A DNA stretch of 55,705 bases from Patescibacteria group bacterium (GCA_022710645.1 JAKLGL010000001.1:473296-529000); one strand, 5' to 3'. Counted from the first letter of the stretch, positions 16,653 through 55,400 are shown. A program made the numbers and translations. The notes: generated by a model not told the origin, from the sequence alone.

Positions 16653-16656
16653 ATTT

Positions 16657-17025: not shown

Positions 17026-17030
17026 AAAAT

Positions 17031-17628: not shown

Positions 17629-17660
17629 AAAAAACCCTGGAATTTCTTCCAAGGTTTTTA
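17629..17660 (-). terminator. terminator of the SLT gene, separating it from the downstream operon
   Basis: aaaaaccctgg-aatttctt-ccaaggttttt (one mismatch in the stem). Confidence 0.5.
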
Positions 17661-17665
17661 TTTTT

Positions 17666-22823: not shown

Positions 22824-22845
22824 ATTAAAATTAAAATCAACCTCC

Positions 22846-24243
22846 TTAGCTATTATAAATTTTTTGTTTGATAAGTTCTATCTCTTGTCGCAACTTCATG
22901 TCTTTTTCAATTTCGGTTTTTATTTTTTCATGAGCGTGCATCGCGGTGGTATGGTCGCGACCGCCGAGTTCTTCACCGATAGAAGGATATGACATTTTCA
23001 AATCTTCTCTCAACATATACATGATAATCTGACGAGGAAAAGATAGTTTCTTTTCACGGCTTTTTCCCAAGAGGTCGTTAAGCGCCACATTATAAAATCC
23101 GCCGACCACTTCCGTTATTTGTTTGGGGGTAATCATCTTTTGACCTTGAGATGCCTCCACACTGCTCAAAATATTTTTGATTGATTCCGGAGTCGGTGTC
23201 ATATTTTTGAGCTGATGAAAAACTATGATTTTATTTAATGCGCCTTCCAACTCACGAATATTGCTTTGAACCGTAGACGCTATCAAAAATAAAGATTTTT
23301 CGCTTAATTCAAAATTCTTTTCTTCGCACTTCTTTTTCAAAATAGCCGCGCGAGTTTCAAAATCAGGAGAAGAGATGTCCGCAATCATACCCCATTCAAA
23401 ACGAGATTTTAAACGATCTTCAAGCATCGGTATGGCTTTTGGCGGTCTGTCGGAAGTTAAAACAACTTGTTTATTTTGTTGATGTAATTCGTTGAAGGTA
23501 TGAAAAAAAGATTCTTGAGTTCTATCTTTGCCGGCAATAAATTGGATATCGTCTATCAAAAGCAAATCTACATTACGATAACGATTTTGAAATTCTTTAG
23601 CCTTACCTTCTTGAACCGATTGAATAAAATCGTTGGAAAATTTTTCCGCGCTTACATAAACTATGTTGGCCGCGGGATTGTTTTTCAAAATAGAATTTCC
23701 AATAGCTTGTAATAAATGTGTTTTTCCCAAACCCACTCCGCCATAAATAAAAAGCGGATTATATGATTCACCCGGTTTACTAACTACTGCTTGTGCGGCA
23801 GCATAAGCCAATTCGCTTCCTTTTCCAACCACATAACTTTCAAAAACATATTTTGGATTCAAAGTAAAAGAAGAACCGGTATTGTTTTGATTTTTTAATT
23901 TATTACTAAAATTTTCCAAAACTGTTTCTTGTTTGTTTTCCAGATTGGCTTTGGCCGGGGCGCTAAAATCTATTTCATGTTCAACTACATTTTTGATATT
24001 ATCTATTTTATATTCCAATCTTTTTACAGGTCTCTCGGTAATTCTTTCCAAAGATTTTATTATCATTACGTGATATTTTTTCTCAAGCCAAGCTTTGGCA
24101 AAAGTATTGGGAACGCAAATCACCACTTGTCCGTCATTAATTGCCACAATACCGGTATTTTTAAACCAAGTTATAAAATTAGCTTTTGAAATGGAAAGCT
24201 CCAACTCAGCAAGTACTGCCTGCCAAACTTCGGTATTATTCAT
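22846..24243 (-). CDS. dnaA: chromosomal replication initiator DnaA
   Basis: GGVGLGKTHLLQAIGN Walker A, LLIDDIQF Walker B, C-terminal GGRDHTTAMHAHEKI DNA-binding signature. Confidence 0.97.
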   Translation of the reverse strand: MNNTEVWQAVLAELELSISKANFITWFKNTGIVAINDGQVVICVPNTFAKAWLEKKYHVMIIKSLERITERPVKRLEYKIDNIKNVVEHEIDFSAPAKANLENKQETVLENFSNKLKNQNNTGSSFTLNPKYVFESYVVGKGSELAYAAAQAVVSKPGESYNPLFIYGGVGLGKTHLLQAIGNSILKNNPAANIVYVSAEKFSNDFIQSVQEGKAKEFQNRYRNVDLLLIDDIQFIAGKDRTQESFFHTFNELHQQNKQVVLTSDRPPKAIPMLEDRLKSRFEWGMIADISSPDFETRAAILKKKCEEKNFELSEKSLFLIASTVQSNIRELEGALNKIIVFHQLKNMTPTPESIKNILSSVEASQGQKMITPKQITEVVGGFYNVALNDLLGKSREKKLSFPRQIIMYMLREDLKMSYPSIGEELGGRDHTTAMHAHEKIKTEIEKDMKLRQEIELIKQKIYNS

Positions 24244-37983: not shown

Positions 37984-38048
37984 CAAAAGCATATTATTAT
38001 TAAAATTAATTAAAAATTGTAAAATTGAAAATTGAAAATTTTCGATAT

Positions 38049-38119
38049 GGGCCTATGGTTTAGTGGTAGAACAGGGCATTCGCATTGCTCAGACGGCAGT
38101 TCGATTCTGCCTAGGTCCA
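38049..38119 (+). tRNA. tRNA-Ala (anticodon CGC)
   Basis: Acceptor gggccta/taggtcc with the G3:U70 identity pair; anticodon loop ttCGCat; T-arm ggcag-ttcgatt-ctgcc. Confidence 0.9.
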
Positions 38120-38128
38120 CAAAATCTT

Positions 38129-38148
38129 TGTGGATAAACTGTGGATAA
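38129..38148. promoter_or_regulatory. two tandem perfect DnaA boxes
   Basis: tgtggataa at 38129-38137 and at 38140-38148. Confidence 0.6.
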
Positions 38149-38216
38149 GTCATTATTTTGGCTAAAATTAGCCAAAAAGTAAGATTAAATTTAATCTAAA
38201 ATACAACTCTAAAAAA

Positions 38217-38232
38217 TGTTTCACGTGAAACA
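38217..38232. promoter_or_regulatory. parS site 1 (perfect palindrome TGTTTCACGTGAAACA)
   Basis: Exact 16-mer; fits the ParB/Spo0J parS consensus tGTTNCACGTGAAACa. Confidence 0.8.
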
Positions 38233-38267
38233 TTTTTTATTTTATCTAAAATTTAATTTAACAAAAT

Positions 38268-38283
38268 TGTTTCACGTGAAACA
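38268..38283. promoter_or_regulatory. parS site 2
   Basis: Exact TGTTTCACGTGAAACA. Confidence 0.8.
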
Positions 38284-38390
38284 AATTTAATAAATGTTCA
38301 ATTTTAAAGTAGGCGTTTATTTATAATAAGCTGTGGACTATAAGATTTTTAGAAATAGGGGTCAGAAGAACAAAATTACTATTAGAAAAT

Positions 38391-38406
38391 TGTTTCACGT
38401 GAAACA
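38391..38406. promoter_or_regulatory. parS site 3
   Basis: Exact TGTTTCACGTGAAACA. Confidence 0.8.
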
Positions 38407-38425
38407 ATTTTAGGAGTAGGCAGAT

Positions 38426-38441
38426 TGTTTCACGTGAAACA
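38426..38441. promoter_or_regulatory. parS site 4
   Basis: Exact TGTTTCACGTGAAACA. Confidence 0.8.
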
Positions 38442-38762
38442 ATTTATTAATTTTGGCTAAGATTAGCGAAATTAAATACAATATTGAATACTAAAATTGT
38501 TCAATGTTGTATTTAATAGCGATAATTTTTAATAGTGTTATTAATATTTTTTAAATAAAAAAATTAATCAATAAATAAAGTTTAAAATAGTTTATTTAAA
38601 AATTAAGTTAGTTTTGGTTTTTATAAATAAAAAATTTTATTAGTTTTATTCAAAAATTCAAGACCCTATTCAGTGCTGGTCTGATCAAAAATTTTAAAAT
38701 TATTTATTTTGTTTTTTTCGCTAAAATAAAAAGATATCCACATCGTCTTTATCACAAAAATA

Positions 38763-38771
38763 TGTTATAAT
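38763..38771 (+). promoter_or_regulatory. candidate extended -10 (TGtTATAAT) upstream of the surface-cluster operon
   Basis: tgttataat at 38763-38771, about 115 nt upstream of ATG 38885. Confidence 0.35.
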
Positions 38772-38884
38772 AATGATGCGTAAACAAGTGAGGGTTAAAT
38801 ACGCGGTTTAATCATTTTTAGTTTTATTTTAATAATAAAAAGATAAATAAAAAACCTTTTATTTATTAATATTTTTAATTCACT

Positions 38885-41182
38885 ATGCAAAACGAACGAG
38901 TTTTTAGAGCATTGGATATTTGCTCTTACGTTTTATTGCTGGTAAATATGGTTTTGATGCCATTGTTTATCAGTAAAAGTTTGGTAAATTTTTATGTCAT
39001 ACCAAAACAGTATGTTTTTATCGGTTTAGTTCTGGTAAATTTATTGCTTTATGCGGCAAAATTGATTTTTTCCAAAAAATTGACTTATACAAAATCTTTT
39101 CTGGATCTTCCTCTTTTAGGTCTTTTGGGTGTTTTTCTTTTGTCTTCCATTTTTTCCGCCAATTCCATAGATTCTTTTTTTGGTCGTAGTGAATATTTTG
39201 TCATGAACTTTTTCTTTCTGCTTTTTTTGGTTTTATTTTATTTTATCATCAACAACACGATCAAAACATTTAAAAGTTGGTCGGGGATTGTGGATGCGCT
39301 TATTTATACGGGAGGAACTACTGCTTTGGTTTTTTTGTTGAAAGTTATTTTTAAGTTGGATTTGTTGAACTACATTGTTCCAGGCGCATGGAACACTATA
39401 GATAAAATAAATACACCTTTCGGTTTTTGGTTGATCATCGTATTTATGTTGGCTGCCGGACAAATTATCAAGAAAAACGTTTCTTTAGGCAAAGCCTTGT
39501 CTTACTTTTTTGTTTCTTTGCTCTCCTTTGTTTGTTTGATAATGTTGAGCTTTAATATTTTATGGTGGATATTTTTACTTGGGTTGGTACTGCTTCTTTT
39601 GATCGGTGTAAGTTTTGTTACCGAAGTCAGGGTAGGTTGGGTTTCGGCTTTATTTGCTTTCTTGGTGGTAGTTGTTATCTTTTTAGCTTTTGGATCTCCG
39701 AAATATTTGCAAACTCAGGTGCCGGCCGAAGTAGCTTTGGGTTATAAACCGTCTTGGGTTGTTTCTTATAAAACGGTTTTATCCGGAGTAAAAGAGTTTG
39801 CTTTAGGTAGTGGTTTAGGTACTTTTAATGTTGATTTTTCCAAATTTCGCAGTGCTGATTTTAATAATGATGCTTGGGCTTGGTCTTTACGATTTTCTCA
39901 ACCGTTCTCAACCGTTTATGCTATTTTTGCCGAGACCGGTATTTTGGGGTTGTTAACATTTATTTTTGTTTTGCTTTATATCTTGGGTCATATATTTTCT
40001 TTGTGGGTGCGCAATAAAACCGATCACTTCCTAAATCATTTTTCAGACAAAGATGATTTTGACAAAATAGATTTCTTTTTGGCAGTAGCTGCTTGGTTGG
40101 TTTTGACAATTGCGATGGCCTTTTCTTTTCACGGTCCGGTTTTGTGGTGGCTTTGGTTTGTCTTGCTTGGTTTAATGACTGTTGGTTTATCTTTTGTTAA
40201 TTCCGATGTTTTAACGGATTATGAATGGGAAATTAGTGATAACCCTCAATACAGCTTGTCTTTTTCTTTTGTGCTTATAGTTATTATGGCCGGAATCACA
40301 ATGGTCGGAGTTATCGGAGCCAGAATGTATATTGCTGAAAAAGTTTATGCGCAGGCTTTAACCTCTCAAAATTATCAAGAAGCTCAAAATAATTTAACTA
40401 AAGCTTTAGGTCAAAGACCGAATTCAGATCTTTATCACGCTGCTTTAGCCCAGGTTTATTTGATGCAGGCTGTGACTTTAGCTTCTACTCCTAATCCGGA
40501 CATGCAAACAATTTCCGGTTATGTGGCTGTAGCGGTAAACGAAGCAAAAAAAGCAACGGAAATATCTCCAAAGTCGGTAGCTATTTGGGAAAATCTGGCC
40601 ATCATGTATGAAAATGCCGCTTCACTTGTTCCTGAAGCTCGCGAATGGGCTATTAAATCTTGGAAACAAGCCAGAGAATTGGAACCGACCAATCCGGTGT
40701 TAGCTTGGCGTTTAGGAAATAATAATTTGTTAGCCAACAAAAACGATGAAGCTTTAAAAAATTACAAAGAAGCGATAACTTTGAAAGCTGATTATTTGGA
40801 TGCCCATATGTCGCTTGCCAGAGTTTATGAAGCGCAAAATAAAGTCGGTGAAGCGGTTGATGTTTATAAAAACGCATTTAATCTTGGATCTTCCAATGCA
40901 ACGTTTTTATTTGACTTCGGTCGTTTGCTTTATAATCGCAACAAAGATGAAGATAGAAACGATGCGGAAAAATTATGGTTGGCAGCGGTTAAAATTCAAC
41001 CGAATTATTCTAATGCTTTATACTCTCTTGGTTTATTGTATGAAAATAAGGGAGATAAAACCACAGCTTTGCAATATTATTATAAAGTTAAAGATTTGAA
41101 TCCTGACAACAAAGATATCATCGCTAAAATAAAAAGCTTGGTTGGCGCTCCGAAACCGGTTGAAACGGAAAAAAAGAAATAA
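38885..41182 (+). CDS. polytopic O-antigen-ligase-like (Wzy_C-type) membrane protein fused to C-terminal TPR repeats
   Basis: 765 aa; about 12 TM helices and a GSGLGTF motif. At least 5 TPR-like units follow (ALKNYKEAITLKADYLDAHMSLARVYEAQNK..., NALYSLGLLYENKGDKTTALQYYYKVKDLNPDN). Confidence 0.85.
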   Translation: MQNERVFRALDICSYVLLLVNMVLMPLFISKSLVNFYVIPKQYVFIGLVLVNLLLYAAKLIFSKKLTYTKSFLDLPLLGLLGVFLLSSIFSANSIDSFFGRSEYFVMNFFFLLFLVLFYFIINNTIKTFKSWSGIVDALIYTGGTTALVFLLKVIFKLDLLNYIVPGAWNTIDKINTPFGFWLIIVFMLAAGQIIKKNVSLGKALSYFFVSLLSFVCLIMLSFNILWWIFLLGLVLLLLIGVSFVTEVRVGWVSALFAFLVVVVIFLAFGSPKYLQTQVPAEVALGYKPSWVVSYKTVLSGVKEFALGSGLGTFNVDFSKFRSADFNNDAWAWSLRFSQPFSTVYAIFAETGILGLLTFIFVLLYILGHIFSLWVRNKTDHFLNHFSDKDDFDKIDFFLAVAAWLVLTIAMAFSFHGPVLWWLWFVLLGLMTVGLSFVNSDVLTDYEWEISDNPQYSLSFSFVLIVIMAGITMVGVIGARMYIAEKVYAQALTSQNYQEAQNNLTKALGQRPNSDLYHAALAQVYLMQAVTLASTPNPDMQTISGYVAVAVNEAKKATEISPKSVAIWENLAIMYENAASLVPEAREWAIKSWKQARELEPTNPVLAWRLGNNNLLANKNDEALKNYKEAITLKADYLDAHMSLARVYEAQNKVGEAVDVYKNAFNLGSSNATFLFDFGRLLYNRNKDEDRNDAEKLWLAAVKIQPNYSNALYSLGLLYENKGDKTTALQYYYKVKDLNPDNKDIIAKIKSLVGAPKPVETEKKK

Positions 41183-41195
41183 TAAATTAAAAAGT

Positions 41196-41855
41196 ATGAT
41201 TGACGGCTCAATCTTCAAAAATATAAATAAAACAATCAGAATCGGTTTGATTGCGTTAGTTTTGATTTTACCGATTTCTGTGTTGGCAGCCATGTCTTCC
41301 ACCAATTATTATATTTATGCGGATTCGGTGGAGACTGGCGGGGGATTGAGCAGTGGCGGTCTTTATGATTTAGAAGATACTTTGGGTGAAGGAGTCATTT
41401 CACAAGCGAGCGGAGCGACTTACAACATTAACGCCGGTTACCAAGCTATGGTTTTGGGCTCTCTCTCGATGAATATAAATGACAATTCTATAGATCTTGG
41501 AGATTTGAATGTTTCCACTATTATTTCTGCCAGCACTACAGTGACAGTAACGACCGACGCACAAACAGGCTACACTATGTCGATTCAAAATGCCGTTTGG
41601 ACAGGAAATCCTTTGGCTGATGTTGTCGGAGGATCGGTAGATATAGGTCAAGAAGAATACGGAATAGCCGTGAGCGGAAGCGACGCTTTTTTTGGAGATG
41701 ATCGCGTCGTAACTTCTACGCAAATTTTGGCAACAAAAAATTCTCCGGCTACAGGCAGTCAAACAGTTGTTACTTTTAAAGCCGCCATTAGTCCGAGTAC
41801 AATTTCCGGTTCCAGAAGTCAAGCGGTGACCATTGGAGTTTCTGCAAATTTTTAA
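41196..41855 (+). CDS. secreted beta-rich protein, WxL-domain-like in pattern
   Basis: The track ORF starts at 41142 inside the previous gene; the Met at 41196 (MIDGSIF) follows its stop. Signal anchor IGLIALVLILPISVLA. IDLGDLNVS...TVTVTTDAQTGYTMSIQ and ...ISGSRSQAVTIGVSANF recall WxL surface proteins, but no literal WxL motif is present. Confidence 0.8.
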   Translation: MIDGSIFKNINKTIRIGLIALVLILPISVLAAMSSTNYYIYADSVETGGGLSSGGLYDLEDTLGEGVISQASGATYNINAGYQAMVLGSLSMNINDNSIDLGDLNVSTIISASTTVTVTTDAQTGYTMSIQNAVWTGNPLADVVGGSVDIGQEEYGIAVSGSDAFFGDDRVVTSTQILATKNSPATGSQTVVTFKAAISPSTISGSRSQAVTIGVSANF

Positions 41856-41856
41856 T

Positions 41857-42747
41857 ATGAAAAAAATAATTTTTTTCATTATTTGTTTGTTGTTTACTGG
41901 ATCTTTTTTGGAAGTTCGAGCTTTTACGGTTTCTCCGGTAAAACAGATTGTGACTTTGGAACAAGGTACGGGAAGAAATGTTAAAATTAAAATTCGCAAC
42001 ACAGAAAGGAATACGGCAAAATATAAAATTTCCGTAGTCGGAGTAAAACAAGACGATCAAGGATATCCGGTTTACGGCACAAATATAGAAGAAGCGGAAA
42101 AATGGGTAAGAAGCGAACAAGAAGTTTTGGAAATCGGACCAGGAAAAGAAATTGAAGCAAGTTTTAAAATAAATATTCCCAAAGGTACTTATCCGGGATC
42201 GCATTATGTGGGACTTAGCGCAGAACCGATGTTATTAGGAGATGAAAATAAAAATTTTATTGGTAAATTAATTTCTCTTTTGTTGATAGAAGTTTCGGGA
42301 ACGGTTAATGAAACTTTGAGTATAACAAAATGGTCCGGTGAAAAAAGTTTTTATTTAAGTTTGGAAAAATTAAAATTAAATGTCGGTTTAAAAAACGATG
42401 GAAATACCGAGTTGCCAATTAAAGGCAAAATACGATTGTATAATTGGTTGGATAAAAAAACAGCCGAAGGAGATGTTTTTTTAGGAAATACTATTTTACC
42501 GCAAGCCCAAAGAACCACGGAGGTATTATTGCCAGATTTTAATAATTGGCAATTGCCAGGAATATATAGAGCGCAGTTGGATTTAGTTTATGGTCGCACG
42601 GGACAAAAAATTTCAGTGCAATATGCTTTTTGGTATATATCGATTTATTGGTTGATTGCCATCGGATTGATTTTATCGATTGTTATTTGGACTTTGATTA
42701 AAAAAATAAAAAATAAAAGGGAAGAAGAAACACCGTTTAAAATTTAG
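41857..42747 (+). CDS. signal peptide + two Ig-like modules + C-terminal TM/basic tail (DUF916/DUF3324, CscA-like architecture)
   Basis: The Met at 41857 is 1 nt after the upstream stop. MKKIIFFIICLLFTGSFLEVRA signal peptide. FTVSPVKQIVTLEQG...VKIKIRN start. C-terminal helix WLIAIGLILSIVIWTLI followed by KKIKNKREEE. Confidence 0.85.
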   Translation: MKKIIFFIICLLFTGSFLEVRAFTVSPVKQIVTLEQGTGRNVKIKIRNTERNTAKYKISVVGVKQDDQGYPVYGTNIEEAEKWVRSEQEVLEIGPGKEIEASFKINIPKGTYPGSHYVGLSAEPMLLGDENKNFIGKLISLLLIEVSGTVNETLSITKWSGEKSFYLSLEKLKLNVGLKNDGNTELPIKGKIRLYNWLDKKTAEGDVFLGNTILPQAQRTTEVLLPDFNNWQLPGIYRAQLDLVYGRTGQKISVQYAFWYISIYWLIAIGLILSIVIWTLIKKIKNKREEETPFKI

Positions 42748-42762
42748 CTTGCTTGTCGCTAA

Positions 42763-43776
42763 ATGTATATGAATTCAACAAGGGGGAAAAATTTAAAAAA
42801 TATTTTTTACATCGGAATCATAATCGCGACATTATTTTTGTATAAAAACATAGCACAAACAGAAACACAAACCGGAAATATAAACGTAAACATGAACGTT
42901 GTCGCAAGCAGTACTCCTCCCGGAGGCGGACCGTCTGTTTCCGTGCCCTTTATTTATGATGTTAGAAGTAGTACGACAATGACTTCTGCGAAAATTGTTT
43001 GGAAAGTTAATGATTATGGTTATGGTTTAAACACTACAAGCGTGACGTATAGTATTGATTATTTTTTTGCAAATACAGCGCCGGCTATTGTTTCGGGCAC
43101 GGAATTTATAGCTGATATTTCAGGATTGCAATCCGATACGGTTTATAATTTTAGAATTCTTGCCAGAAATAATAGTTTTGTAGACGCCGTACCGGTGCAA
43201 AGCCAGTTTAAAACTCAAAAAGGAAATGTATTAAATAGTTTGACGATTTTGGCTAAACCGGAAAAAAGAGTTCCTAAAACAGGTGGTAATTTTGGCGCTA
43301 CAGCCAGTTTAATTTTTTATGATACGGTTTCAAATACTATTTTAATGAGCACCTCTACAATTTTGAGTTCTTCAGGAACAACCACTATATATAATGTAGA
43401 AGTTCCACTTATAACCAATTCGGCTGTGATTTTAAAAACGAATGCTCATTTAGCCAAAAGACTAAACGGAGTAAATACAAATGTTACGGATTTAACTTTG
43501 GATTTTACTGAAAACGGTATTGTTTATTTGTTAGCCGGAGATATGGCCGGAGATTTGCAAAATCCGACTGCGCAAAATCCGTTTACCCAGTTTTTACAGA
43601 GTGTTCACCAAGACGAGTTTGTGGATATTTTAGATATTTCATCCGTAGTTTCCAAATTCAACGATCAAACGGCGGGGGAAAGAGCCAATCTGAACGGTGA
43701 TAGTATCGTAGACGCTCAAGATATTAGTGTTGTTCTTGGAAATTGGAACAAAGAAGGAGACATTATTGTTAAATAA
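42763..43776 (+). CDS. anchored FN3-domain protein with C-terminal dockerin-like module
   Basis: FN3 pattern IYDVRSSTTMTSAKIVWKV...GLQSDTVYNFRILARN. C-terminal duplicated Ca-binding-like segments AGDMAGD...FVDILDISSVVSKF and NLNGDSIVDAQDISVVLGNW. Confidence 0.85.
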   Translation: MYMNSTRGKNLKNIFYIGIIIATLFLYKNIAQTETQTGNINVNMNVVASSTPPGGGPSVSVPFIYDVRSSTTMTSAKIVWKVNDYGYGLNTTSVTYSIDYFFANTAPAIVSGTEFIADISGLQSDTVYNFRILARNNSFVDAVPVQSQFKTQKGNVLNSLTILAKPEKRVPKTGGNFGATASLIFYDTVSNTILMSTSTILSSSGTTTIYNVEVPLITNSAVILKTNAHLAKRLNGVNTNVTDLTLDFTENGIVYLLAGDMAGDLQNPTAQNPFTQFLQSVHQDEFVDILDISSVVSKFNDQTAGERANLNGDSIVDAQDISVVLGNWNKEGDIIVK

Positions 43777-43850
43777 AGTTTATTTTACAATTTTTAGTTT
43801 TTGAATGATTTTTGAAAATTAAAAATTAAAAATTAAAAAATTAGACAAAT

Positions 43851-46433
43851 ATGTTTTTCAAAACAAAAATTTATATAGCGAGTTTGGTGGCGGGTTTGTT
43901 TTTTTCCGCGCCGGCTTTAGCAGCTACTTTTCATTTGTCTCCTTCGTCCGGAACTTTGATAAAAAATTGTAACAAAACAATCGAGGTGTTGATGGATGTC
44001 GATTCCCTAAAACAGAGCAATGCCGCCCAGATATATATAGATCATGATTTTATTTCCGGAGAAAGTGTTTCTCTGTCCGGAGCTGGTTTGTTTGCCAGCT
44101 ATGGAATTCCAACTCCTTTATCATCCGGTAGAATCGGTCTTTACGGATATACCAATAATATTTCCGGAACAGATAGAGTTTTTGCCAGAGTAACACTCAG
44201 AAGCGGTAATGTCGGAGCAATCAGAAATTTAAACATTCATTTTAACAACGCTGAATCCGTAACTTCCAAAATCGCCGATTTGGATAGTAATAATATTTTG
44301 ACAGGAGTTATTTCCGGCAGTTATACCGTTGTTGACGGATATTGCGAAACAGTTCCTCCATATTTGAGTAATATGAATCCGGCAGCGGACAAGCCTAACC
44401 ATCCGGTAGGGGATAATATTATTTTTGATTTAAAAGACGATAGTTCGGGAGTAAATATTGCGACTCTGGGAATTACTTTAAAACAAAACGGAACAGATGT
44501 TCCCTTTAATTTAACTACTACAAAAGTTAATCCCGGAGATGATAAAATTTATGCTATCACTATTGATCCGACAAGTGATTTAATCCGTGAAGTTAGAGTA
44601 GATGTTACTGTTACCGCTCAAGACAAGGCCGGTAATGTTATGAACCGTTCTTATAGTTTCAATGATTTAACTTGCGAACAACTCGGTTGTTTTGCCGCTC
44701 CGGTTGTTACTTCGACAGTAACAACCACTTGTCCTGAATGTAATTTTGTTTGTGAAGCCGGAACCACTACGGTGACTTCGACAGTCACTACTACACTGAC
44801 ACAAACGCTTTCTCTGCAAAATAACATAATGCCGATACATTTTTATTTGGATAATCGCGCGGTCGAAGCGACGATTTTTGGCGATGATGAAATTAGCGCT
44901 CTCGGTGGAACGGTTTTTACAGTGGCGGCTGATACTTTAAATTTGAACGAGTCAATTAATTCCGCTAAATTAATTTTAGAAGGTCGTGAATATCCGATGT
45001 TTTATGATAACAGTTTGAAAATGTATTCAACGGATATTTCCGATTTGGTAACCGCCGGATTTTATCAAGCGAGTTTACAGGTTAATTACGGTGCTGATCA
45101 AAATATAATTTCTAATTTTACCATCTCAGTTTTGAATCGCGGTTATGTGAATTTGAAAACCGCCAAAACAACCAGTCCTTTTTCCGGAGTGATGGTTTCT
45201 TTACAAAGGCTGGTCGATGGTGAATATTCTTTGATTAAAAAAATAAATACTGACGATAACGGAACTTACGGTTTCGTGGTGCCAAACGGAAATTATCGTC
45301 TTGTTTTTGAAGCTCCGAATTTTGATACAACTTATACCAGCGGTTTTTCCGTAGAGAATAATATTATTAATCGTACCCATACTTTTATAGAATCGGTTAG
45401 TTTACTTGATCCTGAAATTAGTTTAACGGAAAAAGCCGATTATCTTGCGGGTATTGTCGGAGGTAGAGGTCAAGAAATTATAGAATTAACCAACGATCCT
45501 CAGGTAGAAAAAGCTATACAAAATTATGCTGCGCCCATAGCTCTTGGTGCTGCCTTGGCGGCCACGGCTCCGGCATTATCTTTGATAAATTTATTATCTT
45601 ATTTGAGATTTTTATTCTTGCAACCTATTTTATTACTCGGTTTGCGTCGTCGCAAGAAATGGGGAGTCGTTTATGATTCTTTGACAAAATTACCGGTTGA
45701 TTTGGCAGTAATTCGTTTGCTTGATGCCAATACCAATAAAATTGTTCAATCTCGTGTAACAGACGCAAAAGGCAGGTATGTATTTTTGGCCAATCCCGGG
45801 ACTTATCGTTTGGTTGTTGAAAAACAAAAATTTATTTTTCCTTCTAAAATTTTACAAGATTTTAAAGAAGACACCACTTTCTTGGATATTTATCATGGAG
45901 AAATTATTCACGTTGATGAAAACTATACCATTATTGCCGCCAACATTCCGCTTGATACCGCAGGAGCTGAGGAAAAAACTCCTCGACGCATTATCATTGA
46001 TAAACACTGGAGAAGTTTTCAAAATTTTGTAGCATCATTGTCCGTGGCCGCCGGTATATTGTCGGTTATAATCACTCCGACTTGGTGGACAGTGCTTTTA
46101 TTGTTATCGCAAATTTTACTTTACTATTTATTCAAGCGTGTAGCTATACCGAAAAAACCGAAAAGCTGGGGTATTGTTTATGACAGAGACACCAAAAAAC
46201 CGGTTGGTAGAACTATAGCCAGATTGTTCAGTAAACAATTCAATAAATTGGTTTCTACGGAAATCACTGACAATTCCGGACGCTACTCTTTCATGGTCGG
46301 TCCGAGCGATTATTATGTGACTTTTGAAAAGACAGGTTATCAAAAAGCCACAACGCCGGATATCAAGATAAAAGAAAAAGACGAAGTTATAAAAGTGGAC
46401 ACAGCCATGGAAAAAACTAAAGAAAATTTTTAA
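43851..46433 (+). CDS. cohesin-like domain protein with Ig-like region, Thr-rich linkers, TM blocks and three CarboxypepD_reg-like domains
   Basis: 860 aa. Signal peptide ...FFSAPALA. Cohesin-like ATFHLSPSSGTL...IEVLMDVDS...NAAQIYIDHD...GSYTVV. Domains of the DDNGTYGFVVPNGNYRLVFEAPNF, DAKGRYVFLANPGTYRLVVEKQKF and DNSGRYSFMVGPSDYYVTFEKTGY type. Two hydrophobic blocks. Confidence 0.9.
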   Translation: MFFKTKIYIASLVAGLFFSAPALAATFHLSPSSGTLIKNCNKTIEVLMDVDSLKQSNAAQIYIDHDFISGESVSLSGAGLFASYGIPTPLSSGRIGLYGYTNNISGTDRVFARVTLRSGNVGAIRNLNIHFNNAESVTSKIADLDSNNILTGVISGSYTVVDGYCETVPPYLSNMNPAADKPNHPVGDNIIFDLKDDSSGVNIATLGITLKQNGTDVPFNLTTTKVNPGDDKIYAITIDPTSDLIREVRVDVTVTAQDKAGNVMNRSYSFNDLTCEQLGCFAAPVVTSTVTTTCPECNFVCEAGTTTVTSTVTTTLTQTLSLQNNIMPIHFYLDNRAVEATIFGDDEISALGGTVFTVAADTLNLNESINSAKLILEGREYPMFYDNSLKMYSTDISDLVTAGFYQASLQVNYGADQNIISNFTISVLNRGYVNLKTAKTTSPFSGVMVSLQRLVDGEYSLIKKINTDDNGTYGFVVPNGNYRLVFEAPNFDTTYTSGFSVENNIINRTHTFIESVSLLDPEISLTEKADYLAGIVGGRGQEIIELTNDPQVEKAIQNYAAPIALGAALAATAPALSLINLLSYLRFLFLQPILLLGLRRRKKWGVVYDSLTKLPVDLAVIRLLDANTNKIVQSRVTDAKGRYVFLANPGTYRLVVEKQKFIFPSKILQDFKEDTTFLDIYHGEIIHVDENYTIIAANIPLDTAGAEEKTPRRIIIDKHWRSFQNFVASLSVAAGILSVIITPTWWTVLLLLSQILLYYLFKRVAIPKKPKSWGIVYDRDTKKPVGRTIARLFSKQFNKLVSTEITDNSGRYSFMVGPSDYYVTFEKTGYQKATTPDIKIKEKDEVIKVDTAMEKTKENF

Positions 46434-46440: not shown

Positions 46441-46471
46441 TTGCCATTCTGTGTTAAAAATAGAATGGCAA
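46441..46471 (+). terminator. hairpin between the cohesin gene and the giant ORF (weak terminator, no T-run)
   Basis: ttgccattct-gtgttaaaaat-agaatggcaa. Confidence 0.35.
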
Positions 46472-46495: not shown

Positions 46496-49400
46496 ATGTT
46501 TAAAAAATTTATAATAGCCTTTTTGGTGGTTGGTATAGTTTCCATAACCGCGGTTGTTTGGTCTGCTAGTCCACCGCCGATTATTTCTTACCAAGGTAAA
46601 TTATTGGTTGGCGGAAATCCCGCTACCACAACATTGCCGATGGTTTTTGAAATTTATGATGCTTTATCCGGGGGTACATTATTATATACAGCATCTGGAA
46701 CACTGCCTGTCACATCGACTATTGATGTTTTACCTGTGCGCGGTTTGTTTACCGTGAATCTTGGTGATACTGGCACCAATCCTATTGATCAGGAGATTTT
46801 CAAAAACAATACCGATTTGTACATGCAGGTGACTATAAACGGAGAAACACTTTCTCCTCGTAAAAGAATTTCTTCAGCGCCGTATGCCATGAATTCTAAA
46901 TATTTGGATGGTAATTTTGCCACATCTTCTCCCACTACCACCAAATATATTCCCATCTCCGATACATTTGGAAATTTTGAACTGCGAGATGTTACTTCTA
47001 CCAACTTATATATAATAGGAAATGTAACAGCCAATACGGTTTCCGCCACAGCTTTTACATTAAACGGCGATACTATCACATCTTGGCCGACCGGTGGGGG
47101 ATCTTTACCAACTGGCATTAGCGGTCAACTCTTGATTCACAATGGATCGGATTGGATAGCCGGTAACACCTTTACCACCACCACGATTGTCAGAGATATT
47201 TTACCTGATATGACCGGAGGGTTGGGAAATGTGAGTTTGTATTCTCTTGGTAATACAACTTCACGTTTTGCGGAAGGTTGGTTTGAAAATATTTATTTGG
47301 GAAGTTCTACTTGGAAATTTAGTCAAGACGGAAGTGGAAATTTAAATATTTTGAACAACGGCACTTCAAATGGTTTATATATCGCAGCTAATGGAAATGC
47401 CGGTATCGGAGATGCTAACGTTTCGACAAAGTTTTTAATAGATAATCCGCAAGACGAAATTGAATTAATAAACGACAATAGCATGCCGAATTTTATAGCT
47501 CCATCATATGATATCGTGGTTGTGGGGGATGTGGCCTATACTATAAAAGAGACGGATTTTTCTATTTATGATATCAGTGATAGGACCAATCCTATTTTAA
47601 TTTCTTCAACCAGCTCTCTTGCCAACGCTGCTTGTTTGGAAATTTCGGGAAATTTTGCGTATATCGGCGATAGAGATACAGGATCTGGAGCTCACTTTGC
47701 TATAATTGATTTTACCAGTTCAACTGATATGCAAATGGCGGTTTATGCGTCATTGGGAGGAGATCCTCGAAATTCCAAGGTGGTTGGAAATATGCTTTAT
47801 TTGGTTTCGCCGGGAGGTAGTGGCGAACAGCTTATTAAAGTGGATATTACCAACCCATATGCGCCTTCAGCTGTTGGAAGTATAAATTTGATCGGAACAG
47901 AAGGTAAAGACATAGATGTTAGCGGAGGATATGCATATGTTGCCGAGGATAATTATTTGGAAATAATAGATGTAAATTCTTTTGTTACTACCTCAGTAGC
48001 TTCTATTTATGCAAATTCGGATGTGAAGATTTCCGGAAATTATGCCTATATGGCTGAATCGGGCGGGGGATTAAGAATTTTGGATATTTCCACTCCACTT
48101 TCTCCGGTTGATGTTGGTTTAGTAGAATCTGATTATGGAAAAGTTTGGAAGATAAAAGTAGTAGGTAATTATGTTTATGCTACAATTGATGGTCGAGGAG
48201 TAGAAGTCTTTGATGTTTCAAATCCGACAACTCCTTTTTCAGTAGCTTTTTATGATACCAGTTTTGGTCCTCAAAATATTGATGCGGACACCAATAGGTA
48301 TATATATGTAGATGCGCCAAAGCCAACTTTGATTTTACGATTTAATCCTGTAGTTGGAGGCGCGGCTCCTTATGCAGCTATATTCAACGGGGGTAAAGTT
48401 GGTATTGGTACCACGACTCCCGGACAGAATCTTTCCGTGGTAGGAAATATCGGTGCCACCAAAGGAATATATTTGGGATATGATAGTGAGCCTATAAATA
48501 CCGGGTATGGTTTATATAGCAGGGGAGGACAGTTATATTGGGACGGTTCGCCTGTTGGAGGATCTTCTTTGCCATCTGGTTCAACTTACGGCGATATGAT
48601 GTATTGGGACGGAGGTAATTGGCAAGCAAGCGGTATTCTTCGTTTAAATCCTTCCTATACTAATATTTCAATGGACGGAAACACTAATTATGGTAATAAT
48701 AGTGTTGCTTTCGGCTACGGAAATACTAATTACAGTTATACAGGTGCTGTTTTTGGTTATGGAAATTCAATTTATAGTGGAACCAGTTACGCATCTATTT
48801 TGGGAGGACAATATAATACTATTAGTAATAATTCTCCTTACTCATCTATAGTAGGAGGAAACGGAAATTCTGTTTCAGCTTGGGCTCAAGGTGCGGTGAT
48901 TGCAGGTGGTTTGTATAATTCAATAGGTTGGAGCTCCTCACAATCTTTTATTGGTGGGGGTGCCTATAATAGTACAGCTGGGCAGTCTCCTTTTATTGGA
49001 GGAGGTTATTCAAATTATGCGGCCAATAATTATGCTTCTATAGTTGGTGGTTATGACAATACTGCATCTGGCCAATATTCTACACTTGGTGGTGGCTATC
49101 AAAATAATGCTTCTGGGTATATGTCTGTAGTTGGTGGTGGTAGCGGCAATGTACCTACAGCAAATTATTCCGGTATTTTTTCCGGTCAAAACAACACTGC
49201 ATCTGGCCAATATTCTTTTATCGGTGGTGGTGGAGGAAATTATACTTCTGCTGATTATTCAGCTGTAGTCGGAGGTTATAGTAATCAAGCTACCGGCCAA
49301 TATTCTTTTGTGGGCGGTGGTTATGGAAACAACGCGGCTGGTAATTATTCTTCGGCTTTTGGTTATGGAACAGTAGTAGGAGGTAGTAATTCTTTTGGTA

Positions 49401-52400
49401 TAAACCTAAACACTTCCGGTTTTACTCTCAGCCAAGCCAACACTATGGCTATTATGAACGGTTATGTCGGTATCGGTACCACTACTCCTGCTTATCCTTT
49501 GACCGTCCAAGGTAATGTAAATATTACCGGACAATATTTGATAAATGGTGTTCCATTAAGCGGAGGAAGTAGCCAGTGGAGTACTGTTGGAAACAATATT
49601 TCAAATAGCAATTCCGGTAACGTGGTTATCGGTACGGACCAAACGATTTTAGGAATGACTCCTGAAAGTATCACTGATATGGTAGCAAACAGTCGCTATA
49701 ATAAGGGGCTTTTTGTTGTAAACAACATACTTTATTTTTGTGACTATAACAGCGGTTTGCGAATTTACAGTTTAAATTCCACCACTCCGGAACTTCTCGG
49801 TACTTATAATTACGGAGGAGGAATGTATCCTTTATCAAATGTTTATGTTTCCGGGAAATATGCTTACCTGACTTATGGTTATTTTTTTGTGATAGTTGAT
49901 ATTTCTGACCCTGCTAACCCTGTTTATCAAAGCAGTGCTTTTTCTAGCGGTAGTTCTGCCGGCTATAAAGACGTGGTAGCAGAAGGTAAATATGCATATG
50001 TTGTCGGTAGTGAAGGGTTTAAATTAATAGATATTTCCAATCCGAAAATTCCGGTGATTGTCCGTAATATCACTTCTTTAAATACAGGTTTCAATATAAA
50101 AATTTCCGGTGACTATGCTTATATAGCAGACGGTTCAGCCGGCTTGAAAATTTTTGATATTCGAGATGTAAATAATATTTTTCAAGTAGGCAGTTATCCT
50201 TCCGGAGGCACAATGAGTGCTCTTGAAATAAGAGGTGACTATGCTTTTATCGCCGATGGTTTAACTGGAGGGGCTTTTATATTAGATATTAAAAATAAAA
50301 CCAGCCCCGCGTTTGTTTCCAGTTTTCCCAGTGTTTTTAGAGCAGATGATATAGCGGTAAATGATAATTATGTATTTGTCGCAGCTGCAGCCGGAGGTGT
50401 TAGAATTTACAATATAGAAAATATTAATTCTCCGCTTTGGGTAAATACCATAGCGACTTGGAATGCATATGGTTTAAATATGTATGGAACTAAGTTATTA
50501 GTGGCTTTATACAGATCTCCAAATCAATTGTATATTTATCAACTTCAAGGATTAAAAGCAAATTCAGCCAAAATAGCCACAGCGGAAATTGACAGGTTGT
50601 CTGTTTTTGGTGATGCTGATTTCAATGGAAAAATTACTGTTAGAAATTCTTTAACAGTAGGTAAAGAAGGAATTATTTCTATGGGTCCGATACAGTCGGG
50701 CTACGGAGTTTATTTAAACTCTTCAACTCCGGCTACAACAAGTTATGCATTGTATAATCTTGGAGGTAATCTTTATTGGAACGGATCACCGGTTGGAGGA
50801 TCTGGTTCACTGCCTTTTGGTTCAATTGGTCAAACAATGCGTTATGGTAATTCTGGTTGGGAAGCGACCAACAATGTTTTTGTTTCTTCTTCTGGATATG
50901 TTGGTATTAATACAACAACCCCTAACTATCCTTTGAGTGTGCAAGGTGACATAAATATAACTGGACAGTATAGAATAAACGGAGTGCCGTTGAGTGTCGG
51001 GGGAGGAGTTCCGGCCGGATCAAACACTCAGATTCAATTCAACGATTCCGGTTCGTTTGGAGCTACTTCAACTTTTGTTTGGGATAATATAAACGGAAGA
51101 TTGGGGATAGGAACGTCAACTTCAAACTCTAAATTAACTTTAGATAATGATGGTGGAATTTTAGCTATAGGAAATTTTGGTAGTGGAAATACAGTTATAC
51201 CATCAGGTGCTGGAACAAGATTAATTTGGTTACCTTATCAAGGTGCTTTTAGAGCTGGTTATAGTAATGGAACTGTTTGGGATTATAGTAATATAGGGTC
51301 ATTTTCTGTAGCGTTTGGTTCTGGTAATAGAGCAAGTGGATATGCGTCAGCTGTTTCTGGTGGTAGTTTAGGAGTTGCTTCTGCGTATTATTCTTTGGTA
51401 GGTGGTGGTCTGCAAAATACTGCTAGTGAAAGATTTTCTGCAGTAGTTGGCGGTAATGCTAATACTGCTGCAGCAACTTCTTCTTTTGTTGGTGGTGGGT
51501 ATTTTAATAGAACGTATGGAATGTATTCATCTGTTGTAGGTGGTTATAGTAATATAGCTTCTGGAGATTCTTCTTTTGTGGGAGGAGGGCAATATAATGA
51601 TGTGAGCGGATCCAGTTCTGTGGCTCTTGGTAATAAAATGATTGTTTCCGGAAATTATTCTTTTGGCGTTAATGTTAGTAATACTTATGCATTTTTAAAT
51701 CAAGATAATACAATAGCTTTACTTGGCGGAAACACTGGTGTTGGTACTACTACACCGAGCTATCCTTTGAGTGTACAAGGTGATATAAATATAACTGGAC
51801 AGTATAGAATAAACGGAACACCTTTGAGTGTTGGCGGATCTTTACCTTCCGGAGTAATTGGTCAAACACTTATAAATGCCGGTGGTTCAACATGGAATCC
51901 TACCAACACTTTGTTTGTAAACGGTAACGGAGTAAGTATTGGATTTTTAAGTACTAGTACGGAAAGATTATTGTCTGTTCATGGTGACGCAGTAATCAAC
52001 GATCAATTGATTTCCAATCAAGAAGGCGGTTTATATTTTGGTCGTACTAGACTCTCGGAAAATATTTGGAATATTGGAAGTACTACTATTTGGGTAACTT
52101 CTACAGCTAAAATGACAGATCAAAATAGAAATTGGAGTTCTGTAGCCATGTCTTCTAATGGTCAATATCAATCAGCAGCAGTGTATAATGGATACGTTTA
52201 TATTTCCTCAGATTATGGAAATACTTGGGCGACTAGCACGGCAGCCGGCTCCAGAAGATGGAACGGAATTTTTATGTCTTCAGACGGTAAATACCAAACC
52301 GGAGTTGTTGGTTCTGGTTATATCTACACCTCATCTGATTATGGTAATACATGGGCGGAAAAAAAGAATGATTCAACAAGAGATTGGCGTTCAGTTTCTA

Positions 52401-55400
52401 TGTCTTCAGATGGTAAATATCAATCTGCGGTTGCAAATGGAGAATATATTTATGTTTCATCTGATTATGGAAATACTTGGACAAATAAAGAGTCTATAAT
52501 TAAAAATTGGGTTTCTGTGGCCGTTTCTTCAGATGGTAAGCGTCAGGCTGGAGCTGTTAGTAGTGGTTATATCTATCTTTCCTCAGATTATGGAAATACT
52601 TGGACGACTAGCACGGCAGCTGGTTCTAGAAGTTGGTACGGCTTATCCATGTCTTCAGATGGAAAATACATTTCCGCTATAATAACAGTAGGACAATTTT
52701 TAGTCTCTTCTGATTACGGAAATAGTTGGACCACTGTTTCTCCAAGTGCAAACTGGAGATCTATTACTATGTCAGCTGACGGTAAATATCAAACAGCTGG
52801 CGCTTATAGCCCTGCTGTTAATAGAATTTATGTTTCAGATGATTATGGAAGAAATTGGTATTTGAAATCTTTTTCTGGTGCGGCTGAATATCGTGGTATG
52901 GCTATGTCAGCTGACGGTAAATATCAAACAGCCGTTAATTATGGAGGTTATATTCAAACTAATGTTGCAGGTTCGTATTCTTTTGGGAATATTGGTGTTG
53001 GTACAACTACTCCTGGTTATGAATTAACTGTTCAAGGAAATATTAATTTTACAGGAAATATTTATCAAAACGGTTCATTGTTTTCCGGTGGAGGCGGTGG
53101 GACTCCAGGAGGTTTAGATGGGGAAATCCAATTTAATAATTCCGGTTCATTTGGTGCTACGTCCAGTTTCTTTTGGGATAAAATAAATGGAAGATTGGGG
53201 ATAGGAACTTCAACTCCTGGTTTTAAATTAACCATGAATAATGATGGCGGCATATTGGCTATAGGTAGCGGAGACGGTTTATTTAATCAGCAGGGAGCAG
53301 ATTTGGCTGTTACCGGTACTGGCACTAGAATGATTTGGTATCCAAAAAAAGGAGCTTTTAGGGCCGGCGGAGTTATTGATCCAAGTACTATAGGATTTCC
53401 GACAAATAATATAGATCAGTGGGATGATGATAATATTGGAGCTTTGTCTTTTGCAGCTAATTTGAGTAATATGGCTCGTGGCGGAGGCTCAACAGCTTTT
53501 GGTTTGGTAAATAATGCTTTGGGAGACATTTCTTTTGTCGGAGGTACTAACAATACTTCAAGCGGGTTTGCTTCTGTAGCTTTTGGTCGCGGTAATATTT
53601 CTTCTGCCACAAGTTCAGCAGTTTTTGGTACGGCCAATGAATCTTCTGGAGAAAATTCTTTTGTGACAGGTTTTTTAAACACTGCAAGTGGCAATAATTC
53701 TTTTGTAGGTGGTACGTACTCTTCAGCTCCTGGAGAAGATTCTTTTGCTTATGGTCAATATGCCATAGCTTACGGCTCCAGGTCTTTTTCTTTGGGAAGT
53801 TACACTCAAGCAGCTACAGGGTCGGTTGCTATTGGTAGTGGATCATTTTTAAACCCAACATGGGCAAGTGGCTTACAGTCTGTAGCTATCGGTAGTCCGT
53901 CACAAGCCAGCGGTTATCAAGCTGTAGCTATCGGTTATGGTGCTGGAGGTCATGCGACAGGTTCTATTGCTTTGGGAAATGTTGGAATTCGTGCCGGAGC
54001 TAATTATTCAATTGGTTTAAATGCAAGTTCGTCTTTGTTTAACATGTATACTCCGAATGTTATCGCATTAATGGGTGGAAACGTGGGTATTGGTACTACT
54101 TCTCCATTATTGAAATTATCAGTAAAAACAACCAACCCTCAAGATGGTATCGGTGTTTTTGATAATAATAACCGATTGGTTGCTGGTTTTGGTGCAGATC
54201 AATTTGGTTCTGGAGCTTTTGGAATATTTAATGGCACAAACAGAGTGATTACTTTGGATGGTGCTTCATATTCATATATTAATTCTGGAAATTTTGGTAT
54301 CGGTACTTCCACCCCGTCTTCAATGCTCACTATCCTTGGTAACGGTTCCACTGACCTCTTTTCTGTAGGTACTTCCACCAGTCGAGAATTATTAGCCGTC
54401 ACTGCTTCTGGTTCAGTTAAATTTATGAACGGAATGTTGGTTGTTGATACTACTGCTTTAAATACTGCCCGTTTAGCAGGCAGCGCTCTTGGTACAAGTG
54501 TCCTTATCGAAGCCGGTCTTGGTCAAGATGATTTCTTCTATCCGTTATTACCTGAAGGTACCAGTTGGAATGGGGGAGATTTAATCTTAAACCCTGGCGG
54601 TATGTTTGATTGGTATGGTGGTAACGGTCTCAATATCCGTCGTGGTAATGTATATATCGCCAGCTCCAGTTACGCTGCCAACGGTGGTAGGGTGGTTGTA
54701 GGAGATGGTACGGTCTTACCAGCCCAAAGATTTACTTTGGAAGGTGGTATATATAGTTATTCCTCATTTGGTTTAAATAAAGATACAATGGATGATTCTT
54801 TCTTAGTTGAAAACGCCGCTCAATTTATCTGGCATCCTAAATCCGCTTCTTTACGCGCCGGCTTCTTTACTGATACTTCAACTGTAGCAGAATCTAACTT
54901 AGGTAACTATTCCTTTGGTCTCGGTTATGATGTCACAGCTTCTGGCAACTATTCTTACGCTTTTGGTAGAAATATGGATGTTAGCGGTGTTGGCTCTTTC
55001 GGTATTAACCTTAAATCTTTCTCCAAAACACTGTCTCAAGACAATACCCTGGCTATTTTTGGCGATTATGTAGGTATCAACACTTCCACCCCGGGTTCCA
55101 CTTTTGTGGTTCAAGGTGATGCAGAAATTTATGGTAATTTTACAGTTTGTGTTTCTCCCGGAGTTTGCGGTTATGTCAGTTCCACCGATGGTAGTTGGTA
55201 CACTTCTTCAGATATCAGTTTAAAGAAAAACATTACTGATTTTACCGGAGGTTTGGACAAAGTTTTGGCTATGCGTCCGGTCGGTTATGAATTTAATAAT
55301 GAAGCTGATGCTAACGGCACCTCTCATATCGGTTTCATCGCCCAAGAAATGGAACAAATCTTACCGCAAATCGTTGGTTCAAACAAAGTCGGTCTCAAAT

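Follow-up and report, generated by a model that had tools for sequence, protein, structure and literature searches.

The subject of this study is a cluster of five genes, termed here g1 to g5, within a stretch of 55,705 nucleotides (nt) from the genome of a Patescibacteria group bacterium (GCA_022710645.1 JAKLGL010000001.1:473296-529000). The host belongs to Candidatus Magasanikbacteria, a name that is also carried by close homologues. The whole stretch is referred to below as the window; positions are counted in it from its first letter, and it is the sequence that was probed wherever a negative result is given for the window. Open reading frame (ORF) calling on the window places the five genes consecutively and co-oriented on the plus strand, with gaps of 13, 1, 15, and 74 nt between them and a further 62 nt between g5 and a giant ORF (Table 1), in agreement with the short spacing given in a preliminary description of this DNA that was made from the sequence alone. 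That description had seen in the five genes a surface-assembly unit combining a WxL/Csc-type complex with a cohesin-dockerin tether, and had taken the combination for a system not yet described. The surface-assembly unit is retained here, with another identity: at a probability of roughly 0.68, the region represents a divergent and reduced Pam-type pilus cluster that operates by the mechanism set out further below.

Pam pili are chaperone-assisted, usher-less, donor-strand pili of the candidate phyla radiation (CPR), for which cryo-electron microscopy structures from Ca. Mycosynbacter amalyticus have been reported (Troman et al., 10.64898/2026.03.03.709456). In this system PamA, PamB, and PamE are two-domain pilins, consisting of an N-terminal domain, a linker donor strand, and a truncated immunoglobulin (Ig)-like C-terminal domain, and engage in donor-strand exchange, whereas PamT is a single-domain tip pilin without the linker or donor strand; PamC and PamD are FimC/PapD-like chaperones that each carry a C-terminal transmembrane (TM) helix; PamR is an RbmA-like terminator/anchor that joins an N-terminal strand to a pair of FnIII domains and a TM helix; the pam gene neighbourhood has a tail-fibre-like protein at its centre; and no usher is present (10.64898/2026.03.03.709456). 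Two NCBIfam models, NF058579 (PamT) and NF058581 (Pam_pilin_C), stem from the same preprint. The operon already on record comprises a pilin, a membrane-anchored two-domain chaperone, a terminator/anchor with FN3, and a neighbour of tail-fibre type (10.64898/2026.03.03.709456), and the earlier claim of novelty for the combination has to be given up.

The g2 gene encodes a pilin of the PamT family that is exported by Sec and has the fold of chaperone-usher pilins. In NCBIfam (release 20) it matches NF058579, CPR_pilus_PamT, with an expectation value (E) of 1.6e-13 and 50.6 bits; all 36 of its relatives match the same model (best E 5.6e-55) and 29 of them match Pam_pilin_C (best E 2e-43). When the modelled beta domain was compared with the PDB by Foldseek, FimA, the pilin domains of CsuE and PapG, CfaB, TasA, and PapE predominated, and no WxL chain occurred among the 50 best matches. 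Pfam recognises no family in g2, and searches of PDB sequences with g2 and with its profile returned no match. The beta-rich protein had earlier been read as following the WxL-domain pattern. This identity was rejected: none of the 36 family members matches Pfam WxL (PF13731) at E<=1, and a motif search found no W-x-L motif in g2, g4, or g5. A phage-tail origin of g2 was likewise considered and rejected, Foldseek against BFVD having given only weak matches to uncharacterised phage proteins. Between the signal peptide and the pilin domain lies an N-terminal extension that is conserved more strongly than the rest of the protein (mean column entropy 1.46 bits, vs 1.85 bits in the folded domain) and that AlphaFold2 (AF2) leaves unfolded, at a predicted local distance difference test score (pLDDT) of about 45. 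High conservation together with low model confidence is typical of a segment that needs a partner in order to fold, and the extension is accordingly put forward as a candidate interface or donor segment.

Partnering g2 is g3, for which the AF2 model (pLDDT 79) gives a signal peptide, two beta-sandwiches, and a C-terminal TM helix, the CscA-like architecture that had been predicted for it. The top Foldseek matches in the PDB are the Enterococcus faecium WxLIP structures 9i25_C ('bound to long WxL') and 9i1y, at E 5e-13, followed by RbmA and then by CsuC, CfaA, and FimC, with the chaperones at E 2e-9 to 4e-8. At the level of sequence, a profile of 65 distant g3 relatives searched against all PDB sequences found EfmWxLIP1 as its sole significant match (E 6e-4), and 31 of these 65 relatives match PF06030 (WxLIP_PGBD, formerly DUF916; best E 3.4e-9); g3 itself scores 21.6 bits against this family, under the Pfam threshold of 27.3 bits, and as a single sequence has no match among PDB sequences. 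DUF3324 was undetected by sequence in the g3 family, and no Pam chaperone model in NCBIfam matches it. As modelled, then, g3 is a membrane-anchored, two-domain protein of WxLIP type with the fold of a chaperone-usher chaperone, and it is homologous to WxLIP in at least its N-terminal domain. The family is large, with 2908 cluster representatives at E<=1e-3 in a HMMER profile scan, the best 150 of which are all of similar size and nearly all aligned almost end to end.

The genomic company kept by this family ties it to pili. A full-length g3 homologue (E ~1e-53) is carried by the Pam-type operons of other CPR in our sample, L019, L023 (Candidatus Falkowbacteria), L024, and L025, where it adjoins a PamT-like gene and a gene for a two-domain pilin of 362-414 aa. 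The C-terminal domains of the two-domain pilins of L019, L023, and L024 match the g2 profile, the L025 pilin is homologous to those, and the L019 pilin also matches Pam_pilin_C. Placed as it is, the g3 family is therefore the chaperone-like partner of Pam-type operons, and it is at the same time homologous to WxLIP. For WxLIP itself, strand insertion into WxL is a published prediction (Hassan et al. 2023, PMC10599100). The Pam preprint makes no mention of WxL or DUF916 (10.64898/2026.03.03.709456), and literature searches found no link of WxL to chaperone-usher pili or to CPR bacteria. Just upstream of the PamT-like gene of L019 (7970-10004) lie two paralogues of 356 and 328 aa with a common, helix-turn-helix-like N-terminus of 136 residues, which are possible regulators of that operon, judging by their sequences.

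The third component, g4, has no TM segment of its own and is homologous to the N-terminus and FN3 region of a protein of L019 (L019_464) that starts with the same N-terminal strand, carries a pair of FN3 domains, and ends in a TM helix, which is the published architecture of PamR. Its fn3 match is weak in the window protein (Pfam, E 0.0064) and exceeds the Pfam threshold in a homologue (27.9 bits). The strand that directly follows the signal peptide is retained throughout the g4-like and fused proteins (NINVQ.., GVNVRVVV, TVNINALV) and aligns with 'DQVNVEGSI' in L023_766 and 'NDQVGIDAIV' in L024_766, both of which follow a pilin N-terminal-domain-like region; the aligned site is where the two-domain pilins of L019 and L023 have their linker segment (DQVTVSATV). 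By this alignment the strand may be taken as the counterpart of the Pam donor strand, and it is treated here as a candidate donor strand. At the other end of the protein, the C-terminal profile finds in the PDB the CipA type II X-dockerin entries 5g5d_B (E 4.8e-5), 2b59_B (E 8e-5), and 3kcp_A (E 2.9e-4), and eight of its ten PDB matches are dockerins, five of them beyond the CipA type II entries. Pfam Dockerin_1 matches the window segment at E 0.0093 and the L024 homologue at 28.2 bits, over the 22.9-bit threshold. Profile evidence thus confirms the C-terminus of g4 as a true dockerin, and the earlier designation of g4 as an FN3 protein ending in a dockerin is upheld. The two 766-aa g4-like proteins (L023 12947-15244; L024 6254-8551) combine a pilin-N-terminal-domain-like start (SDTMSR..K....HE..F) with a linker strand, three FN3 domains, and a canonical dockerin, and from this arrangement look like an intermediate between pilin and terminator.

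What the dockerin might hold is suggested by g5, a membrane protein with four hydrophobic segments by hydropathy and with Pfam matches to CarboxypepD_reg (E 1.5e-20, three domains) and Big_5 (E 0.0064). Its C-terminal module is kept in all loci (E ~1e-120) and also in L021, L023, and L024. Seven Magasanikbacteria loci have no separate g4 and instead encode a single fused protein of 965-1135 aa, which comprises g4 positions 10-160 and g5 positions ~336-866; missing are exactly g4 160-341, dockerin included, and g5 1-335. Since these are the parts that can be dispensed with when the link is covalent, the pattern of split and fused genes argues that g4 and g5 associate through them by non-covalent docking. 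The g5-like proteins of L023 and L024 begin with a region homologous to the N-terminal module of g5 (hhalign probability 98.4-98.7%; L023 98.4%). The polytopic membrane protein described previously is present in g5, and the cohesin assigned to it is not recovered: Cohesin (PF00963) has no Pfam match in g5, and the homologous module of L023 reaches E 0.03 and 15 bits, below the 24.1-bit threshold.

Conservation of the neighbourhood bears out the cluster as a unit. The order g1, g2, g3, (g4), g5 is kept in at least 17 loci (L001-L004 and L006-L018), across which g3 identity drops to 28-31%; because the same order recurs down to this level, chance adjacency of the five genes is excluded. In L002 the upstream flank differs and the order of the cluster is the same. 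The sample is composed of contigs with g3 homologues (L001-L004, where L003 is identical to L002 and was counted once among distinct loci) and of 13 GTDB genome loci found via a g2 motif (L006-L018), all from Magasanikbacteria. The records of L006, L007, L014, and L015 are titled 'uncultured Gammaproteobacteria bacterium', and L021 (P0103) is attributed to a Methylococcaceae metagenome-assembled genome; these labels are probably mislabels or the result of mis-binning. Motif searches found no LPxTG-like motif in g1-g5 or the giant ORF, Pfam and NCBIfam gave no usher or PapD-type match in g1-g5, and a promoter and terminator scan of the locus yielded no informative signal in this AT-rich DNA.

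Table 1. Genes, domains, and other features of the cluster and its downstream flank (positions in the window; residue numbers refer to the protein concerned; aa, amino acids)
Feature	Position	Residues	Strand	Description
g1	38885-41182		+	ORF, 765 aa
g1 membrane part		1-484	+	About 11 hydrophobic segments (hydropathy)
g1 conserved large loop		287-364	+	Weakly aligned to the Wzy_C signature loop (hhalign)
g1 TPR repeats		~490-750	+	C-terminal; Pfam TPR_11, E 3e-21
g2	41196-41855		+	ORF, 219 aa counted from ATG
g2 signal peptide		to ~31	+	Secreted (Sec-exported) pilin, PamT family
g2 N-terminal extension	41286-41456	31-87	+	AAMSSTNYxIYADS..GGG..Y.LEDTLGE..Y.I.AGYQAM; PamT model positions 11-95 cover the extension
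g2 pilin domain	41457-41852	88-219	+	Ig-like beta domain, chaperone-usher pilin type; AF2 pLDDT 96-98
g3	41857-42747		+	ORF, 296 aa; signal peptide, two beta-sandwich domains, TM helix, basic tail; WxLIP/CscA type
g3 TM helix	42643-42729	263-291	+	AF2 model
g4	42763-43776		+	ORF, 337 aa; predicted secreted PamR-like terminator/stalk: N-terminal strand, FN3, middle beta region, C-terminal dockerin
g4 candidate donor strand	42871-42900	37-46	+	TGNINVNMNV, polar/hydrophobic alternating, directly after signal peptide; Gly/Pro-rich spacer next
g4 dockerin module	43543-43743	~261-327	+	Two duplicated segments, the second with canonical loop NLNGDSIVDAQD
g5	43851-46433		+	ORF, 860 aa; predicted membrane base protein: signal peptide, N-terminal beta module, Big_5, Thr/Cys-rich linker, C-terminal module
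g5 N-terminal module	43923-44381	25-177	+	Proposed dockerin partner; cohesin fold unproven
g5 conserved C-terminal module	44835-46421	~329-857	+	Three CarboxypepD_reg; hydrophobic segments 560-596 and 723-766
Inverted repeat	46441-46471		+	ttgccattct...agaatggcaa, in the 62-nt spacer after g5
Giant tail-fibre-like surface protein	46496-55705		+	>3070 aa, open at window end
Giant ORF domains			+	LVIVD x7 (E 6.5e-46), BNR, YadA_head, and Peptidase_S74 at residues 2905-2960 (Pfam)

In its domains, the giant ORF that follows the cluster corresponds to the 'tail fibre-like' protein described beside pam operons. A homologue stands 3' of g5 in nine of the 11 distinct Magasanikbacteria loci whose sequence extends far enough downstream to show one (L002, counted also for L003, L008-L010, L012-L015, and L017); it is further found after g5 in L021 and L024 and upstream in L025, with a very short match in L004/L007. 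In L011 (15318-20579) and L018 (14531-20639), g1-g5 are kept and no giant tail-fibre-like gene lies downstream. The giant gene is thus a frequent but non-obligatory neighbour, and the previously noted position directly after the cluster applies to the window; in most loci, these two excepted, such a gene follows. The 62-nt spacer contains an inverted repeat that, from its sequence, may mark the end of the transcript or act as an attenuator ahead of the giant gene; it was not called by the terminator scan, since no T-run follows it. In relatives, a small PF05635 gene (23S_rRNA_IVP, Avd-like four-helix-bundle) occurs between g5 and the giant gene (L002 14699-15070, L003 9249-9620, L004 14732-15100, L024 11310-11675); it is absent from the window. 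That the giant protein is bound by the N-terminal extension of g2 is a speculation.

At the head of the cluster, g1 encodes a polytopic membrane protein with C-terminal tetratricopeptide repeats (TPR), found in all Magasanikbacteria loci and in L025 and absent from L019, L023, and L024. It had been described as a Wzy_C-type protein fused to TPRs. The polytopic character and the repeats are borne out, and the Wzy_C assignment is not, as neither g1 nor seven orthologues match PF04932 in Pfam at E<=10. A bona fide member of the Wzy_C/O-antigen-ligase family is encoded elsewhere in the window (1105-2409, minus strand; E 1.2e-13, over the Pfam threshold) and served as the reference for testing g1: hhalign aligned the two weakly, over g1 residues 287-364 (probability 52.6%, E 1.4e-4), and the His of the Wzy_C signature loop is missing in g1 ('PHN' being replaced by 'PFS'). 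A profile of the g1 TM region had no match among PDB sequences. PamA bears a probable O-linked sugar (10.64898/2026.03.03.709456). On the ground of this sugar, a role in pilin glycosylation is offered as a lead only for g1, which may be an accessory factor of weakly Wzy-like character.

Upstream of the cluster are the housekeeping genes polA, holA, rpsT, and rmuC and two tRNA genes. The genes dnaN and dnaA lie at 21693-24243 on the minus strand and the cumulative GC skew has its minimum near 28-30 kb, from which the window probably spans the replication origin region. The minus-strand gene at 8069-10981 encodes a protein of 970 aa in which four lamin-tail domains are accompanied by a PKD domain and an OB-fold; it is a large surface or nucleic-acid-binding protein typical of CPR. 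The G+C fraction is ~0.29 at 14001-18000 and 38001-40000, vs ~0.35-0.40 elsewhere in the window, and 14001-18000 holds several small ORFs on the minus strand.

In the mechanism envisaged for the Pam-type cluster, g3 would hold the exported g2 at the membrane and complete its incomplete Ig fold. The N-terminal strand of g4, TGNINVNMNV, would then displace g3 from g2 by donor-strand exchange, and g4, which has no acceptor domain and would on that account terminate the chain, would end it in the way proposed for PamR. The dockerin of g4 would plug into the N-terminal module of g5, by which the assembly would be anchored in the membrane. The indirect pointers to donor-strand exchange are two, the polar/hydrophobic alternation in the strand of g4 and the conserved, low-pLDDT extension of g2. 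No two-domain pilin of the PamA/B/E kind was found in the window when it was searched at E<=10 with a profile of the g2 C-terminal domain and with the pilins of L019, L023, L024, and L025, g2 being the sole ORF that matched; the product would therefore be either a short tip-plus-stalk fibre or a fibre whose pilins are encoded elsewhere.

The absence of major two-domain pilins, which are a defining feature of the Pam system, is one of several points that weigh against assignment to it. The 50.6 bits of g2 stand against an equivalog cut-off of 240 bits for PamT, which makes g2 a family member and no equivalog, and its score against Pam_pilin_C is 17.9 bits where the cut-off is 55. The Foldseek E-values behind its fold matches are weak (3e-3 or worse), and its conserved extension of 57 residues is left unexplained by the preprint's PamT, which has no linker strand. 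Searches of the PDB with two profiles of the g5 N-terminus found no cohesin. The links of g3 and g4 to PamC, PamD, and PamR are indirect and run through architecture and through the operons of other CPR; membership of PamC and PamD in the g3 family is what we infer along this route, just as we infer donor-strand complementation, the pairing of g4 with g2, and the partner of the dockerin. Pam pilins have been reported mainly in Saccharimonadia and Microgenomatia, unlike the Magasanikbacteria host here, and their source is an unreviewed bioRxiv preprint (10.64898/2026.03.03.709456).

Other explanations have to be weighed against these same data. The g2 protein could be a polymerising subunit, its extension (e.g., ATYNINAGYQAMV, in which hydrophobic residues alternate just before the pilin domain) being donated to the next g2 to form a homopolymeric thin pilus that g4 terminates and g5 anchors. 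Such a fibre is possible, if somewhat unlikely. It would suit the fact that g2 is the sole pilin gene of the cluster in all of the at least 13 Magasanikbacteria loci, and the extension occupies the linker position of two-domain pilins, is more conserved than the fold, and has the low pLDDT of a segment that folds in a complex; however, the preprint gives PamT a tip role without a donor strand (10.64898/2026.03.03.709456), and the extension is also kept in loci that have a two-domain pilin, so that it is no substitute for a major pilin. The recurrence of the giant gene beside the cluster in the loci listed above, and the central place of a tail-fibre-like protein in pam neighbourhoods (10.64898/2026.03.03.709456), could alternatively mean that g1-g5 form an export, anchoring, or maturation apparatus dedicated to the giant tail-fibre-like adhesin, and no pilus. 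This reading is rather improbable in view of the two loci that carry g1-g5 without the giant gene, of the signal/anchor sequence and self-processing S74 chaperone domain that the giant protein has of its own, and of the hairpin and 62-nt spacer, the site of an extra gene in relatives, that separate g5 from it.

Closest to the preliminary description is a non-covalent cell-wall complex of Csc/WxL type, with a WxL protein on peptidoglycan held by CscA/WxLIP and a cohesin-dockerin tether added, a new composite that would not be a pilus. Parts of it stand, namely the WxLIP-type g3, for which WxLIP is the nearest PDB relative by sequence and by fold and which has PF06030 in 31 of 65 relatives, the real dockerin of g4, and the g4-g5 joint; the predicted insertion of a WxLIP strand into WxL (PMC10599100) moreover means that both systems may work alike. 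The WxL protein has fallen away, and the Wzy_C and cohesin assignments are not borne out by profile searches. With no WxL domain by Pfam in the 36 g2 relatives, by motif in g2, or by fold in its top 50 matches, with DUF3324 undetected by sequence and an LPXTG CscD-like protein absent, and with g2 in the PamT family, the composite is distinctly improbable. A classical chaperone-usher pilus, which the folds of g2 and g3 resemble, is at odds with a membrane-anchored chaperone and with the lack of an usher and of any PapD-type Pfam match in g1-g5, and unrelated surface proteins adjacent by accident would not retain their synteny down to 28% identity or beside the different upstream flank of L002; either is hardly credible. 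A divergent Pam-type cluster remains the reading we prefer.

A broader proposal, tentative and on balance doubtful, is that the Pam chaperones and the WxLIP/CscA proteins of Firmicutes form one ancient, usher-less, strand-complementing family of single-membrane bacteria, and that the Magasanikbacteria cluster would represent a minimal, modular form of it, with a PamT-type tip capped by a donor-strand terminator, a dockerin joint to the base, and a tip extension holding the giant adhesin. If this is true, the WxL/Csc clusters, a long-standing enigma, would turn out to be related to a pilus system. The Pam-type chaperone family is tied by sequence and structure to the WxLIP/CscA proteins of lactic acid bacteria and enterococci, and if that link holds, WxL clusters could work through a membrane-tethered chaperone that complements strands, a mechanism open to testing. 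Little is known of the ways in which the ultrasmall, episymbiotic CPR bacteria hold on to their hosts, and the cluster bears on that question. To our knowledge, no CPR-specific filament had a structure before the Pam pilus; under the reading preferred here, Pam-type machinery extends to Magasanikbacteria and Falkowbacteria. The occurrence of the terminator/anchor in a one-protein and a dockerin-joined two-protein form is a natural experiment on which parts are in contact, and a strongly conserved, unexplained N-terminal segment is flagged in PamT-family proteins.

Comparison with known systems places the cluster among relatives of differing closeness. From the cellulosome of Clostridium thermocellum (CipA-SdbA, 2b59) comes the type II dockerin profile that the C-terminus of g4 fits at E 4.8e-5, together with the presumed role, attachment of a secreted scaffold to a cell-bound protein; differences are the lack of a cellulosome context, a partner module in g5 that is unrecognisable as a cohesin by sequence, and a first dockerin repeat in g4 that is degenerate and carries an insert. 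The archaic (Csu) and class 5 (CFA/I) chaperone-usher systems share with it the folds of their chaperones (CsuC, CfaA, and FimC with g3) and pilins (FimA, CsuA/B, and CfaB with g2), the presumed donor-strand logic, and a terminator unable to accept a next subunit. They differ in that here there is no usher or outer membrane, g3 is tethered to the cytoplasmic membrane, and the g3 family has no sequence-level relation to chaperone-usher proteins in the PDB profile search; lacking an usher, the cluster is not a classical chaperone-usher system. To WxL/Csc clusters it is linked by the architecture of g3, which is that of WxLIP (= CscA: DUF916/PF06030, DUF3324, and a TM helix; 9i1y, 9i25), and by the fact that WxLIP and g3 are each encoded beside a small, secreted, beta-rich partner thought to be stabilised by strand insertion (PMC10599100). 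Absent are WxL-domain proteins, the dual W-x-L motif, the LPXTG CscD, and, by sequence, DUF3324, while the partner of g3 is a Pam-type pilin and the host belongs to the CPR, not to the Firmicutes; since two WxL proteins are required and none is present, the cluster is not a WxL/Csc cluster. From the Pam system itself the cluster differs by having no two-domain major pilins, by one chaperone instead of two, by a PamR-like part that is divided between a secreted protein with FN3 and dockerin and a multi-domain membrane protein of 860 aa, by the polytopic TPR protein at its head, by a g2 score far under the PamT equivalog level, and by its occurrence in Magasanikbacteria, with relatives in Falkowbacteria, rather than in Saccharimonadia and Microgenomatia. 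Like that system, the cluster has a pilin of the PamT family and, with no usher beside it, a chaperone-like protein of two domains that ends in a TM helix; g4, by its N-terminal strand and FnIII domain, is a candidate for the corresponding terminator/anchor. Common to both are also Sec signals on all parts, a tail-fibre-like neighbour, and restriction to the CPR.

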